A stretch of 64,000 nt of DNA from Escherichia coli. Its GTDB lineage: Bacteria; Pseudomonadota; Gammaproteobacteria; Enterobacterales; Enterobacteriaceae. Under the pieces are notes generated by a model that was not told the origin of the DNA, made no database searches, and worked only from the letters and a program-made list of their open reading frames with translations. The position numbers and the translations under genes were made by a program. Location: NCBI RefSeq assembly GCF_016026235.1, contig NZ_CP065613.1; one strand, given 5' to 3'. Of this stretch, positions 3,591-46,604 are shown piece by piece (position 1 is the first letter of the stretch; the number at the start of each line of letters is the position of its first letter).

Positions 3591-3754
3591 AATGACATCC
3601 TCAAGTGATAAGTTAATTAACTCACCAGCAGAGGTGCTAATCTCATGGGTGGTGAGACGCACAGGGTTAGCACTACCGGTCACTCGAGAACCCGGCCAGC
3701 CTTGCGGCTGCCCCGCACGCCTCACCATAATTTGAATGTGGCTGTGCATTACGC

Positions 3755-3781
3755 ATAAAAAAACCGCTTCAGCGCGGTTAT
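3755..3781 (-). terminator. Rho-independent terminator (minus strand)
   Basis: Minus-strand hairpin AACCGC-GCTGAA-GCGGTT followed by TTTTTTT. Confidence 0.4.
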
Positions 3782-3905
3782 GCGCTCGAGTAACTTTCGG
3801 GGTGCTAATCCCGGCACCCGTTTTATGAGGTGCAGGTGCACTATAATTCCACCCGTTCTGGTTTTCAATAGCTACATTCAACATTTTCTCTTTCCTTTCA
3901 TCACC

Positions 3906-12298: not shown

Positions 12299-12479
12299 AA
12301 GGAAACAAAACAGAAACAGCAATTGCCGTTACCTGTTGTTACCATGGCAAGTAAACGTATCTCAGGCGAGCGCATTGCGCCGTTCTGACGCAGATAAACT
12401 AGCCTGGATAGATGGTGCTGGCAATAAAAAATAGCGTTTTCTTATCGGTGTCGGTAAGATTGCTGCGGGTGCTTGAGGC

Positions 12480-12635
12480 TGTCTGCCTCGGGCATGTCAC
12501 TGTAAGGCAGACAGAGAAAAGCCCCAGTTAACATTACGCGTCCTGCAAGACGCTTAACATTAATCTGAGGCCCAATCTATGTCTCACAAATGTAGGTTAG
12601 CCTCTTACGTGCCGAAAGGCAAGGAGAAGCAGGCT
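12480..12635. promoter_or_regulatory. hok mRNA leader with stem-loops; expected location of sok antisense RNA
   Basis: Inverted repeat GTCTGCCT...AGGCAGAC (12481-12512); 9-bp hairpin GGCGGGAGA-GTAA-TCTCCCGCC downstream at 12800-12822. Confidence 0.35.
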
Positions 12636-12791
12636 ATGAAGCAGCAAAAGGCGATGTTAATCGCCCTGATCGTCATCTGTTTAACCGTCATTGTGACGGC
12701 ACTGGTAACGAGGAAAGACCTCTGCGAGGTACGAATCCGAACCGGCCAGACGGAGGTCGCTGTCTTCGTAGACTACGAATCTAGAGAGTAA
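12579..12791 (+). CDS. mok: mok-like in-frame extended reading frame overlapping hok
   Basis: 70-aa ORF ending at the hok stop, as MokC extends HokC in E. coli. Confidence 0.4.
   Translation: MSHKCRLASYVPKGKEKQAMKQQKAMLIALIVICLTVIVTALVTRKDLCEVRIRTGQTEVAVFVDYESRE
12636..12791 (+). CDS. hok: Hok/Gef-family type I toxin
   Basis: MKQQKAMLIALIVICLTVIVTALVTRKDLCEVRIRTGQTEVAVF is near-identical in pattern to HokD/RelF; AAGGAG Shine-Dalgarno. Confidence 0.8.
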   Translation: MKQQKAMLIALIVICLTVIVTALVTRKDLCEVRIRTGQTEVAVFVDYESRE

Positions 12792-13953: not shown

Positions 13954-14243
13954 TGGTGGATTTACGTAAAGCGGCGCGGGGGCAGATGTGCACCGTCAGA
14001 ATTCCTGGCTACTGCAATCACGATCCGGAAACGTCTGTGCTGGCGCATTACCGACTGGCGGGAACGTGCGGAACAGCGACAAAACCACACGATATGCAGG
14101 CGGCGATTGCCTGTAGCTCATGCCACGATTTAATCGACGGGCGGGTAAAAACAAGCGATTACACCAAAGAAGAATTACGCCTGATACATGCAGAAGGTGT
14201 TTTTCGCACGCAAGAAATCTGGAGAAAGGAAGGTTATTTATGA
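13953..14243 (+). CDS. Zinc-binding prophage protein (DUF1364-like)
   Basis: Cys/His pattern C..C...CSSCH; translationally coupled to neighbours. Confidence 0.45.
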   Translation: MVDLRKAARGQMCTVRIPGYCNHDPETSVLAHYRLAGTCGTATKPHDMQAAIACSSCHDLIDGRVKTSDYTKEELRLIHAEGVFRTQEIWRKEGYL

Positions 14244-14794
14244 TTTACCCAACAAATACAGGCAAAAGCGGGGAACACCTTCGTCTCACCACGCTGGAAA
14301 GTGTCTGGATTCAGGGAAAACTGCGCATGTGGGGGCGCTGGTCGTATATTGGCGGCGGTAAGACGGGGAATATGTTCAACCAGTTGTTGGCCTCTAAAAA
14401 GCTGACAAAAACGGCAATTAACGAGGCGCTCCGGAGGATGAAAAAAGCAGGTCTGGACAAACCTGAACTTGAGGCTTTTTTGCGGGATATGATCAACGGC
14501 AAGCAAAAAAGCTGGCTGGTGCATTGTACTGACGCAGAGGCGTTATGCATTGATCGGGTGATTAGTGAAGTGCTGGCAGAACACCCAGGATTGATTTGTA
14601 TCCTCCGGCAACGATATGAAGGGAGTGGGATGACTAAGCGAAAAATGGCTGAATTGCTGAATGATTCACACCCTGAGTGGTGTTATCGGACGTGTTGCAG
14701 TCGGGTTGATGTATGGCTAAATCTTGCTGAATATATGCTCTATCTACCGATGCGTGATGCATTCTCTTCCGGGGATCTAAAAACCGTCTGTTGA
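14240..14794 (+). CDS. Late-gene antitermination protein Q
   Basis: Position before tRNA/lysis region; AAGGAAGG Shine-Dalgarno; Cys-containing C-terminus. Confidence 0.55.
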   Translation: MIYPTNTGKSGEHLRLTTLESVWIQGKLRMWGRWSYIGGGKTGNMFNQLLASKKLTKTAINEALRRMKKAGLDKPELEAFLRDMINGKQKSWLVHCTDAEALCIDRVISEVLAEHPGLICILRQRYEGSGMTKRKMAELLNDSHPEWCYRTCCSRVDVWLNLAEYMLYLPMRDAFSSGDLKTVC

Positions 14795-14883
14795 CTCAAT
14801 CTGTTATCCGGGGCTATATTCCTCACGCGCCAGCAAAATCTGGCGTCGGGATTGGCGTCCCGGATGTTTACGGAGCGATATGA

Positions 14884-14904
14884 GACGCGCCCGCGTCTTT
14901 TTTC
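14884..14904 (+). terminator. Hairpin plus T-run downstream of Q (possible tR'-like terminator)
   Basis: GACGCG-CCC-GCGTC followed by TTTTTT. Confidence 0.4.
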
Positions 14905-15066
14905 ATATCGTTTGCACAGTCTCATTCGCGATTTATGGCGGGCTGTGTGGGGGAGCCGAAAGGCTCGCCGGTTTCCGTACCCGGTTACGCCAACCCTGCA
15001 CAGTTCGCCACCAGTTCGATTGGCGTCGTCGGTGGCGATAATTTCCAAATGTACGGAGTTATCGTT

Positions 15067-15624
15067 ATGACCACTCAAATCTCTGTTGAAACTCTCTCCC
15101 CGATCACCCATAACCAGATTCCTGTTATTACCACCGAACTTTTGGCGCAGCTTTACGGCACTGAGCCGGTGCGTATTCGCCAGAATCATCATGAGAACAA
15201 AGTACGCTTCGTTGAAGGGAAACACTTTTTCAAAGTTGTTGGTAATGACCTTAAAGAATTGCGGGTAGCTTTAAACTACTCACAAAATCCCATCTCTCCC
15301 AAAGCCCGCTCCCTCATCCTCTGGACAGAACGAGGCGCAGCACGCCACGCCAAAATGCTCGAAACCGATCAGGCGTGGGATGTGTTCGAAAAACTGGAAG
15401 ACTGCTATTTCAGTCAAAAGGATCCGTCAACGCCAGTTTCATGCCAGAAAAGTTACGACACGCGAGTTCTCTGTTATCAGAGAGGCGGTGTCACTGTTTC
15501 CACAATTCAGTTACGGGATGATGATATTGTTATTTCCCTTGAGTCATGGCTGGAACTGGCGAGAGCCAATGGTTGGTTTGTTGTTCGCAGAGATAAACTG
15601 GTGGAAAGGTTGATGCAGCTTTAA
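15067..15624 (+). CDS. ORF6N/Bro-N-like antirepressor-family protein
   Basis: ATG at 15067 after GGAG; N-terminal IPVITTELLAQLYG...KVRFVEGKHFFKV resembles ORF6N domain. Confidence 0.5.
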   Translation: MTTQISVETLSPITHNQIPVITTELLAQLYGTEPVRIRQNHHENKVRFVEGKHFFKVVGNDLKELRVALNYSQNPISPKARSLILWTERGAARHAKMLETDQAWDVFEKLEDCYFSQKDPSTPVSCQKSYDTRVLCYQRGGVTVSTIQLRDDDIVISLESWLELARANGWFVVRRDKLVERLMQL

Positions 15625-15832: not shown

Positions 15833-15909
15833 GGCCCTTTAGCTCAGTTGGTCAGAGCGAGCGACTCATAATCGCCAGGTCGCTGGTTCAAGTCCAGCAA
15901 GGGCCACCA
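15833..15909 (+). tRNA. tRNA with CAU anticodon (Met or Ile2, ileZ-like)
   Basis: Manual cloverleaf: acceptor GGCCCTT/AAGGGCC, anticodon loop CTCATAA, 3' CCA. Confidence 0.8.
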
Positions 15910-15910
15910 A

Positions 15911-15987
15911 CCACCACTAGCTCATCCGGATAGAGCATCAACCTTCTAAGTTGACGGTGCGAGGTTCGAGTCCTCGGTGGTGGGCCA
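15911..15987 (+). tRNA. tRNA-Arg (UCU)
   Basis: Acceptor CCACCAC/GTGGTGG, anticodon loop CTTCTAA, T-loop TTCGAGT, 3' CCA. Confidence 0.75.
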
Positions 15988-15989
15988 GC

Positions 15990-16065
<76 letters not shown>

Positions 16066-16068
16066 TAT

Positions 16069-16143
<75 letters not shown>

Positions 16144-16435: not shown

Positions 16436-16651
16436 ATGAAATCCATGGACAAAATTTCAACGGGCATTGCCTACGGCACCTCCGCCGGCAGTGCCGGCTA
16501 CTGGTTTTTGCAGTGGTTGGATCAGGTCAGTCCATCACAGTGGGCTGCGATTGGTGTGCTGGGAAGTCTGCTTCTGGGGCTTCTGACTTATCTGACGAAT
16601 CTGTATTTCAAAATAAGAGAAGACAAGCGTAAGGCTGCACGGGGAGAGTAA
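16436..16651 (+). CDS. Pinholin (phage 21 S21-like class II holin)
   Basis: [29 protein letters not shown]...[13 protein letters not shown] matches recalled S21; GGAGGTGA Shine-Dalgarno. Confidence 0.8.
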
Positions 16652-16654
16652 ATA

Positions 16655-17284
16655 ATGAAGCATGAAGAAATGAATCAGCGATTCAATCACCTGGAAAATG
16701 AAATCACTGAGCTTAATAAAAAATTGTCGGCGTTGGTGAGTTCTGAAGATGAAAACAAACGCCGCGATGAGCATTATGCGGCGATTTACGATTACTGCCA
16801 CAAAGTCGCTCACGAGACTTTTATGAAGTTTTTGCAGGAAAAGTTTTTACCGGCCGCATTGTCAGAAAAAGAGGCGGCTTACCTGCGGCCTGAGTACGTC
16901 ATTACGGTTAACAGTGCCGGAGAGGAAGAGCATAAAAGTGATTTTATTGCGTCTGCACCGGATAAAGACCAGGAACCCCGTCGGCCTTTCAGGGTTTCCT
17001 GTGAAGAGGGTGAGTTCGTCGTTTATGAGAACGGAAAACCTGTCCGGGCATCGCATCATCACTGCCTGAAAATTATTAATCTCGCTATCAGATGCCTGAA
17101 AGACGAAAACACCAGAGTTATGAAACGCATTGGCCGTTGCATGGGGTATTTGCAGGTGGCGGCAGAGATTGAAGCACTTGCCAGTGGTGCAGACATGGAT
17201 GCTGCGGTGCGGGAGGCTCTTCTTCGTGATTTCAATACTCCCCCTTTAAGAAAGAGCCTGATGACTGGATCCAGCCGGGGCTGA
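16655..17284 (+). CDS. hypothetical 209-aa protein inserted between holin and endolysin
   Basis: ORF starts 4 bp after holin stop; N-terminal coiled-coil-like segment; no family recognised. Confidence 0.55.
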   Translation: MKHEEMNQRFNHLENEITELNKKLSALVSSEDENKRRDEHYAAIYDYCHKVAHETFMKFLQEKFLPAALSEKEAAYLRPEYVITVNSAGEEEHKSDFIASAPDKDQEPRRPFRVSCEEGEFVVYENGKPVRASHHHCLKIINLAIRCLKDENTRVMKRIGRCMGYLQVAAEIEALASGADMDAAVREALLRDFNTPPLRKSLMTGSSRG

Positions 17285-17349
17285 CTTATCTTAAAAGGCG
17301 TATATAAGTTGGCTCGTTATTTGTTGCCGATAAATCCTGATAAATATCC

Positions 17350-17883
17350 ATGAGCGCAAAAATCAAATACGGCCTGTCGGCTGCTGTTCTGGCGCTGATT
17401 GCCGCAGGCGCGTCTGCTCCCCAGATACTTGACCAGTTTCTGAACGAAAAAGAGGGTAATCACACAACGGCATACCGTGATGGTTCTGGCATATGGACCA
17501 TCTGTCGTGGTGCCACAATGGTGGATGGTAAGCCTGTCATACCGGGAATGAAGCTGTCGAAGGAAAAATGTGACCAGGTTAACGCTATTGAACGTGATAA
17601 GGCGCTGGCATGGGTGGAGCGCAATATTAAAGTACCTCTGACCGAACCACAAAAAGCGGGTATAGCGTCATTTTGCCCCTATAACATTGGCCCCGGTAAG
17701 TGTTTCCCGTCGACGTTTTATAAGCGGCTGAATGCCGGTGATCGTAAGGGCGCATGCGAGGCGATTCGCTGGTGGATAAAAGATGTTGGGCGCGATTGCC
17801 GCATACGTTCAAATAACTGCTATGGACAGGTTATTCGTCGTGACCAGGAAAGCGCATTAGCCTGTTGGGGGATAGATCAATGA
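17350..17883 (+). CDS. SAR endolysin (lysozyme, R21-like)
   Basis: N-terminal signal-anchor-release segment [16 protein letters not shown] followed by lysozyme-like domain. Confidence 0.8.
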
Positions 17884-18347
17884 GCAGAGTCACCGCGATT
17901 ATCTCCGCTCTGGTTATCTGCATCATCGTCTGCCTGTCATGGGCTGTTAATCATTACCGTGATAACGCCATTACCTACAAAGAGCAGCGCGACAAAAACG
18001 CAAGAGAACTGAAGCTGGCGAACGCAACCATTACTGACATGCAGCAGCGCCAGCGTTCTGTTGATGCACTCGATGCTAAATACACGAAGGAGTTAGCTGA
18101 TGCGAAAGCTGAAAATGATGCTCTTCGGCGCAAGCTTGATAATGGTGGTCGGGTGCTCGTCAAAGGAAAATGCCCTGTGCCAGCCTCAGCCAAAACCTCC
18201 AGCGCCTCCGGCATGGGCAATGATGCCACCGTCGAACTCTCTTCAGTTGCTGGACGAAACGTTCTCGGTATCCGGGACGGAATTATCCGCGACCAAACAG
18301 CACTGAGAACGCTTCAGGAATACATCAATACGCAATGCCTGAATTAA
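17880..18347 (+). CDS. Rz i-spanin
   Basis: ATGA overlap with endolysin stop; N-terminal transmembrane segment then coiled-coil periplasmic domain. Confidence 0.7.
18100..18306 (+). CDS. Rz1 o-spanin lipoprotein embedded in Rz (+1 frame)
   Basis: Lipobox VVGCSS; Pro-rich mature region; entirely within Rz. Confidence 0.65.
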
Positions 18348-18388: not shown

Positions 18389-18700
18389 ATGAAAATTTAT
18401 ATTGCCGGGCCAATGACGGGATATGAGAACTTTAATCGTGACGCCTTTAATAAAGAGGCAGATCGTTTGTCACGACATGGTCACTCTGTCTTGAATCCAG
18501 CCACTTTGCCTAATGGTCTGACACAACGTGAATACATGGATATTTGCTTTGCAATGCTTCGTTGTGCGGATGCTATTTTGATGCTTCCTGGCTGGAAAGC
18601 GTCTGCTGGAGCAACTGCTGAGTATCATTACGCATACAAGATGGAGATGCCGGTATTCACTACGCTGAATTACCCGCCAGCTTGTTCCTCTGCAGTATAA
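18389..18700 (+). CDS. DUF4406 / nucleoside 2-deoxyribosyltransferase-like protein
   Basis: MKIYIAGPMTGYENFNRDAF N-terminus typical of the family. Confidence 0.5.
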   Translation: MKIYIAGPMTGYENFNRDAFNKEADRLSRHGHSVLNPATLPNGLTQREYMDICFAMLRCADAILMLPGWKASAGATAEYHYAYKMEMPVFTTLNYPPACSSAV

Positions 18701-46239: not shown

Positions 46240-46548
46240 TGAATAAATCCTTTAGTTATTTTATTTGCCTTTTATCCCCATTTCGGGGAGTGAAAACATC
46301 CTAAAGGAGAAGTTCAGTTAGCCGATAAATATCATTTGTTACGCCTTAAGTAAAACCTTAATCAAAAAATTCCTCTGAAATGATAATAAGTCTGGTGAAT
46401 GTATCGAAGATAATACATACAAAATAAAAATTATACTTTTAATTTTCTATACGTTATTCTGCGCGGGTTATATGCCTTTATTGTCACAGATTTTATTTTC
46501 TGTTGGGCCATTGCATTGCCACTGATTTTCCAACATATAAAAAGACAA

Positions 46549-46580
46549 GCCCGAACAGTCGTCTGGGCTTTTTTTTAGAA
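46549..46580. terminator. Bidirectional hairpin terminator between ydbK and ompN
   Basis: AAGCCC...GGGCTT hairpin flanked by A-run and T-run. Confidence 0.45.
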
Positions 46581-46604
46581 TTGGATAATCCTTATCCAGA
46601 GCAT

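Follow-up and report, generated by a model that had tools for sequence, protein, structure and literature searches.

The gene between pinholin and SAR endolysin in an Escherichia coli prophage is a reduced, tail-frameshifted member of the extended YdfR family

What is a 209-codon open reading frame (ORF) doing between the pinholin and the signal-anchor-release (SAR) endolysin of an Escherichia coli prophage, two genes generally expected to be neighbours? The frame, here called ORF209, interrupts a lysis cassette within a stretch of 64,000 nucleotides (henceforth the window) of E. coli contig NZ_CP065613.1 (assembly GCF_016026235.1). The original prediction, made from the sequence alone, had described it as an uncharacterised gene of no recognisable family and had offered three roles for it: a lysis regulator, an antiholin-like factor or a moron riding on late transcription. 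The lack of a family did not survive comparison with phage protein profiles. ORF209 matches PHROG 1085 along its whole length (E 3.9e-74, residues 1-209 to profile positions 117-288 of 296), and its classification as a reduced member of this family, i.e. of the extended YdfR family, is close to certain. It does remain uncharacterised, PHROG 1085 being of unknown function. ORF209 is in this sense fairly ordinary, an already catalogued protein from a known family in a known polymorphic slot.

16655-17284, + strand: ORF209, a PHROG 1085 member (extended YdfR family) without DUF1327 and with a frameshifted tail, identical to WP_001300760.1
16643-16646, + strand: Shine-Dalgarno-like GGAG within the last holin codons, 8 nt upstream of the ATG of ORF209 (direct reading of the sequence)

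A search of 5.8 billion proteins returned about 130 relatives, and every match with a named source belonged to E. coli or Shigella. Two forms can be told apart: standalone proteins (185-222 aa) labelled 'hypothetical', and longer ones (259-333 aa) labelled 'YdfR family' or 'DUF1327 domain-containing'. A profile made from the ~115 C-terminal residues, compared with 1.84 billion cluster representatives, yielded only about 19 real clusters; the more remote of these are prophage proteins of Salmonella enterica, most of them again with a DUF1327-like N-terminus. Three large repeat proteins (P0132, P0135 and P0137; HEAT-like, cysteine-rich and leucine-rich), which matched in several short stretches only, were dropped as spurious. 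To judge from these searches, PHROG 1085 is a narrow family confined to enterobacterial prophages of E. coli, Shigella and Salmonella. The invariant columns of its core (F112, G127-K128, H136 and GRCMGYLQ.AAEIEA) are all kept in ORF209, which also shows the genomic context of the family, with a PF04971 holin and a PF00959 lysozyme as neighbours within the late region of a prophage. For ORF209 itself nothing usable came out of Pfam (no match at E < 0.01), NCBIfam or PADLOC, a sequence search of the PDB with the family profile yielded chance matches only (E at least 0.1), and we found no sequence or fold similarity outside PHROG 1085, the core having no detectable relatives in structure libraries.

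About 130 homologues, the selection acting on them and the 379 public contigs (E. coli and Shigella flexneri) that encode exactly the same protein mark ORF209 as more than a chance ORF. The ratio of nonsynonymous to synonymous substitution rates (dN/dS) is 0.25-0.45 family-wide and 0.26 for a pair of standalone forms; by region, it is 0.25-0.30 for the core and 0.7-1.3 for the linker. The coordinates given in the original prediction are right, the ORF beginning directly after the holin with 3 nt between the holin stop and its ATG; with this short gap and a ribosome-binding site of its own, ORF209 should be transcribed and translated together with the lysis genes. No promoter-like or terminator-like site was found flanking 16655-17284, site counts being not above those of shuffled sequences. 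The product is hydrophilic and soluble (grand average of hydropathy -0.64; highest 19-residue hydropathy 0.76), with no membrane segment detected by hydropathy, and the G+C content of the gene is 0.476 versus 0.507-0.509 for the holin (S), endolysin (R) and Rz genes. ORF209-like DNA, at least partial, occurs in 1065 of 5426 complete E. coli genomes (about a fifth), of which only 78 cover 80% of ORF209 and only 5 carry the window allele. All that many E. coli genomes retain is an unannotated fragment of 187 nt from the 3' end of the gene (window 17120-17306, ~84% identity), which has the look of a widespread scar left by recombination at the slot.

The family is modular in build: an optional DUF1327 comes first, then a coil and a linker that varies, and finally a core and a tail that are both conserved. 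Three of these modules are recognisable in ORF209, as follows, with structural features taken from AlphaFold2 models and their predicted local distance difference test (pLDDT) scores.

16655-16846, + strand: residues 1-64, helical hairpin/coiled-coil module (predicted helices 3-27 and 30-64; phrog_2091, phrog_15975)
16847-16984, + strand: residues 65-110, variable linker (pLDDT < 50; dN/dS 0.7-1.3; indel-rich in alignment A1)
16985-17245, + strand: residues 111-197, conserved core with motif MKRIGRCMGYLQVAAEIEA (invariant columns; dN/dS 0.25-0.30; three short strands and three helices)

The two N-terminal helices agree with the coiled-coil-like N-terminus read earlier from the sequence, and residues 1-62 were matched by tblastn in the slot proteins of Stx1a, PhiR12 and 2H10, so that this N-terminal module is common to other slot occupants. 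The model of ORF209 as it stands in the window, built from an alignment of E. coli sequences only, was too poor to use (mean pLDDT 51, and < 45 for residues 150-209). A second model took an intact relative, P0002, as its target and added Salmonella sequences to the alignment. Here the core was predicted with pLDDT 74-88; the model places helices at 3-27, 31-64, 134-149, 155-176 and 183-193, strands within 113-130 and a tail helix at 208-216, and leaves the linker disordered. As modelled, the conserved core of ~115 aa would be an orphan fold confined to enterobacterial prophages, and its interest would reach beyond the copy in the window.

The tail is where the window copy departs from its family. 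In alignments of E. coli and Salmonella members the tail, PPFK..W..PG..YLK.R, is nearly invariant, and in ORF209 it has been put out of frame by the loss of a single nucleotide.

17240-17244, + strand: run of five C, six in relatives; a 1-nt deletion that shifts the frame (DNA alignment A5; frame translations)
17246-17284, + strand: out-of-frame tail LRKSLMTGSSRG and stop, replacing the conserved family tail
17245-17307, + strand: remnant of the ancestral tail (FKKEPDDWIQPGLTYLKRRI, then TAA), still legible in the other frame (frame 2) and identical to the tail of P0004

Owing to the change from C6 to C5, the final 12 codons (residues 198-209) no longer share the frame of the family and the conserved tail is missing, the protein ending instead in ...PPLRKSLMTGSSRG; this had escaped the original prediction. 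The other 197 of the 209 codons are in frame and intact. The window allele is 100% identical in E. coli CFSAN029787, and as WP_001300760.1 it occurs in a second cassette background. Different homopolymer frameshifts are present in the tails of other members (P0042 and P0074), and the NCBI Prokaryotic Genome Annotation Pipeline (PGAP) labels one related copy 'frameshifted' and another 'incomplete'. We also considered a programmed -1 frameshift at the slippery-type heptamer C_CCU_UUA, which could in principle restore the tail, and rejected it as unsupported, because the downstream RNA folds no better than shuffled sequences (z 0.31), relatives have one extra C and homopolymer frameshifts occur elsewhere in the family. 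The peptide that would reveal frameshifting among the products of ORF209 is FKKEPDDWIQPGLTYLK.

The second missing piece is DUF1327 (PF07041), which has no match in ORF209. In most relatives the core follows an N-terminal DUF1327. Among such long YdfR-family proteins, in which PHROG 1085 makes up the C-terminal portion, are P0004 (E. coli, 333 aa) and gp05 of Shiga toxin 2 (Stx2)-converting phage 86 (268 aa), which share the coil, linker and core of ORF209 and, in the case of P0004, also its slot. Unlike ORF209, these long forms have DUF1327 at residues 1-100 (E 1e-33 in P0004) and an intact tail, FKKEPDDWIQPGLTYLKRRI. P0004 is 82% identical to ORF209 over 94% of the latter, while its residues 1-74 are 62% identical to YdfR of the K-12 prophage Qin. 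At the nucleotide level the window and the P0004 locus (L007) match over the holin gene and as far as the first codon of the gene after it; a block of 393 nt that codes for DUF1327 in L007 then corresponds to 45 nt in the window, and from 16704 onwards identity is 92%, across the lysozyme gene and on into Rz. ORF209 resembles most closely the standalone members of PHROG 1085 (e.g. P0030, 213 aa, on 203 contigs, and BCI98956.1 of Stx2_12E129), which are 61-90% identical to it and share both the DUF1327-less build and the slot, but they keep the conserved tail, and several of them are followed by a convergent gene of ~105 aa belonging to phrog_1853.

YdfR of K-12 Qin, which is DUF1327 alone, occupies the same slot with the same spacing and, like ORF209, is soluble and uncharacterised. 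The two proteins nevertheless have no significant similarity (best local E 0.033), and the residues of YdfR that bind ribonuclease E (RNase E), 1-72, are exactly what ORF209 misses. Binding of this segment to the catalytic N-terminal half of RNase E was found by two-hybrid and pull-down assays; YdfR also co-purifies with RNA, its overexpression has little effect on the transcriptome, and ydfR has almost no reads in standard growth (PMC13232886). In the literature on lysis cassettes of Shiga toxin phages, DUF1327 and essQ/rrrQ we found nothing on the slot gene, the only functional data being those on K-12 YdfR. As a side observation, a single comparison aligned residues 60-92 of ORF209 (16832-16930) with residues 61-96 of K-12 YdfR around the pattern LSEK..YL..Y.I (36% over 36 residues, E 0.033); this likeness between the linker and the YdfR C-terminus may reflect shared modular ancestry or chance.

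The convergent gene deserves a description of its own. In six loci an ORF of ~105 aa on the opposite strand, assigned to phrog_1853 and without a Pfam match, lies directly 3' of the core-family gene.

phrog_1853 ORF, - strand: L002 3654-3968; L003 3493-3807; L006 2308-2628; L010 3599-3916; L017 585-902; L018 436-759

It overlaps the 3' end of the core gene in three of the six (L006, L017 and L018). The hosts are Shiga toxin phages, Salmonella and the two most divergent metagenome members, and the ORF diverges alongside the core gene (20-77% identity), so the two look like a conserved convergent gene pair. It is absent from the window (17285-17349) and from the P0004 locus.

How regular is it for the slot between holin and endolysin to be filled at all? 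We surveyed 42 phage records matching both S and R, sampled evenly down the ranking, and sorted them by the length of the S-to-R span.

738 nt: 29 of 42 records, no insert (includes 933W)
1133 nt: 8 of 42 records, short slot gene
1062-1168 nt: 2 of 42 records, YdfR of ~104 aa, as in the viable phage mEp460
1692-1832 nt: 3 of 42 records, longer inserts

The premise that holin and endolysin genes are normally adjacent thus holds for the 29 records with an empty slot, but not for the 13 in which it is filled, and both K-12 Qin and mEp460 carry ydfR in this position. The comparison of related cassettes proposed along with the original prediction does reveal presence and absence of the insert. In Qin the order is essQ-ydfR-rrrQ-rzpQ/rzoQ, with the same 4-nt offset between essQ and ydfR as between the corresponding genes of the window, and the slot may also house other small genes (DUF1823, DUF1883, phrog_1853) in either orientation. 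Among the records sampled, then, the slot is optional, often filled and polymorphic, and since insert-free phages exist the slot gene cannot be required for lysis. The position is not fixed either. Salmonella has the homologue upstream of the holin in all three of the examined contexts that include a holin; in the Salmonella-type loci (L010, L012, L014 and L019) holin and lysozyme are adjacent or overlapping, and the gap between homologue and holin holds another gene, on either strand. This gene order indicates that the family is linked to S21-type cassettes and not to the S-R position as such. All 14 loci with both a core gene and a holin (~10 distinct arrangements) have the PF04971 holin and the PF00959 lysozyme alongside.

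The cassette that surrounds ORF209 consists of the genes listed here, all of them ORFs with Pfam or PHROG matches at the positions where they had been predicted.

16436-16651, + strand: S21-type class II holin (pinholin), 71 aa (PF04971 'Bacteriophage P21 holin S', E 1.3e-35; phrog_9876 and phrog_20)
17350-17883, + strand: RrrQ-type SAR lysozyme, 177 aa (PF00959; phrog_7)
17880-18347, + strand: Rz i-spanin, 155 aa (phrog_13, E 7e-75; annotated in L001 as a 468-nt 'lysis protein')
18100-18306, + strand: Rz1 o-spanin, embedded in Rz (phrog_3198, E 1.4e-25; lipobox VVGC)

With a PF04971 dual-start holin, a SAR lysozyme and Rz/Rz1, this is by its gene content a pinholin/SAR-endolysin cassette of the phage 21 type. 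The holin begins MKSMDK and has two start codons (dual-start motif M1-K2-S3-M4), i.e. the antiholin motif lies within the holin gene itself. The lysozyme aligns with the solved chains 3hde and 4zpu (RrrD) from residue 12, which covers its weakly hydrophobic N-terminal segment; we take 3hde to be the phage 21 SAR endolysin and 4zpu its homologue from K-12 DLP12. For Rz the likely start codon is the ATG at position 17880, which overlaps with the stop of R; the mechanical call of a TTG at 17865 is less favoured. The cassette is preceded by four transfer RNA (tRNA) genes, a module of isrK/C4 RNA and anti-repressor and, at 14120-14794, a Q-like antiterminator; downstream of it a DUF4406-like ORF is followed by the terminase genes. 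From the antiterminator and tRNA genes on one side and the terminase on the other, ORF209 is placed inside the late transcription unit.

The reading we prefer, and hold with about as much doubt as belief, is that ORF209 is an optional accessory gene of the late operon and not a component or timer of lysis, that its core acts in the pathway of YdfR and that the copy in the window is weakened or inactive. Of the three roles first offered, an accessory gene riding on late transcription is indeed the one that fits best. The family would act in the cytoplasm through protein-protein contacts, as a late-expressed modulator working with or beside YdfR on host RNA metabolism, and the core would be its effector or its partner-binding part. 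It is the frequent fusion to DUF1327 that suggests assigning the core to this cytoplasmic pathway. Since both the DUF1327 tether and the conserved tail have been lost, the window copy is probably weakened or inactive, and it would be carried along because it sits inside a conserved transcription unit. Several points weigh against this reading. The link to RNase E runs through DUF1327, the very part missing from ORF209, and would amount to guilt by fusion only; the presence of a PF04971 holin and a PF00959 lysozyme beside the family in every holin-bearing context would suit a lysis-related role too; and the frameshifted allele, unchanged across 379 contigs and two cassette backgrounds, argues against rapid decay. 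A bolder version of the same idea is very unlikely in our estimation. It would make the family a two-part late-phage system in which the core is an effector, tethered to RNase E by DUF1327 and controlled by a co-evolving phrog_1853 protein, that reprograms RNA decay or couples it to pinholin lysis; copies without DUF1327 would act in trans, through a coiled coil shared with YdfR-type proteins of co-resident prophages.

It is possible, although on the whole we doubt it, that ORF209 has no function left and is the decaying half of an ancestral module, transcribed but idle after losing DUF1327, tail and convergent partner. The frameshift removes 20 residues, including the nearly invariant W, P, G, Y and L. 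Tail frameshifts in homopolymers recur in the family (P0042 and P0074), PGAP flags related copies as 'frameshifted' or 'incomplete', and many E. coli genomes are left with only the unannotated 187-nt 3' fragment. The phrog_1853 partner, present even beside the most divergent members, is absent here, and the window sequence is modelled with pLDDT < 45 at residues 150-209. Against decay, however, stand the 197 intact in-frame codons, the identity of the allele across its 379 contigs and two backgrounds, the standalone forms without DUF1327, which are common and under purifying selection, and P0004, which likewise lacks the partner gene and is otherwise intact.

A role in lysis itself seems rather unlikely. 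The antiholin-like factor of the original prediction is not supported: ORF209 is a separate ORF for a soluble protein with no membrane segment, the holin has its own dual start, gene-free phages exist and the Salmonella gene order is different. A cytoplasmic regulator would instead tune the timing of lysis by binding the charged cytoplasmic C-terminus of the holin or the SAR lysozyme before its release. Small cytoplasmic lysis-inhibition factors that are encoded with the lysis genes and modulate holin triggering do exist, as in RIII of T4 and LydB of P1, and they exemplify this type of function, but no sequence or fold similarity of ORF209 was found outside its own family. The tight position 3 nt past the holin stop would fit such a regulator, as would the constant company of holin and lysozyme in every holin-bearing context examined, in two genera, and the predicted coiled coil, which would suit oligomeric binding. 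Yet ORF209 has no membrane segment, the dual start of the holin already supplies an antiholin, the slot is empty in most sampled relatives, Salmonella-type loci place the gene upstream of the holin with another gene in between, and DUF1327, the usual partner, points to RNase E and RNA and not to the membrane. Finally, we regard as highly improbable a moron that is expressed in the lysogen and benefits the host, for instance in defence or superinfection exclusion. The slot is polymorphic for presence and absence, the G+C content of ORF209 is slightly below that of its neighbours (0.476 versus 0.51) and other small genes (DUF1823, DUF1883, phrog_1853) enter the slot in either orientation, all of which would agree with a moron; but the gene has no flanking promoter-like or terminator-like site and no PADLOC match, it lies on the same strand within the late transcription unit, and K-12 ydfR yields almost no reads in standard growth (PMC13232886).

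The direct value of these results lies in tidier annotation: ORF209 should be recorded as a member of the extended YdfR family that lacks DUF1327 and has a frameshifted tail, and not as an orphan, and its insertion as a recurrent optional slot of S21-type cassettes, including those of many Shiga toxin phages and of K-12 Qin, whose occupants are assembled from a few shuffled modules (DUF1327, coil, linker and conserved core). The experimental interest is modest, given that about one in five complete E. coli genomes has a piece of the gene, that structure libraries contain no detectable relatives of the core and that RNase E binding has recently been reported for its usual fusion partner. A phage modulator of RNase E co-expressed with lysis and Shiga toxin genes would, if true, be of real interest; the window alone demonstrates none of that.

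Some further features of the window were noted in passing. Two isrK/C4 antisense RNA modules (Rfam RF01394, RF01695 and RF03163) are present, at 14814-15015 (+ strand) and 3645-3833 (- strand), the first of which, situated between the Q-like antiterminator and the tRNA cluster, is found just upstream of an anti-repressor ORF (14935-15624, phrog_2379) and extends into its start. The four tRNA genes (15833-16143; anticodons CAT, TCT, TGT and TCC) separate the antiterminator region from the holin, and the one with anticodon CAT is annotated as tRNA-Ile in related E. coli prophages. The interval between Rz and terminase is a second polymorphic slot: in the window it holds an ORF of 103 aa similar to DUF4406/nucleoside 2-deoxyribosyltransferase (18389-18700), while E. 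coli CFSAN029787 shares the lysis cassette but has a KilA-N gene and a ParD/ParE toxin-antitoxin pair in this position. The early region of the prophage contains a sok antitoxin RNA (hok/sok-type) at 12467-12641, and the small RNA MicC at 46464-46584 (~46.5 kb) probably belongs to chromosomal sequence past the end of the prophage.

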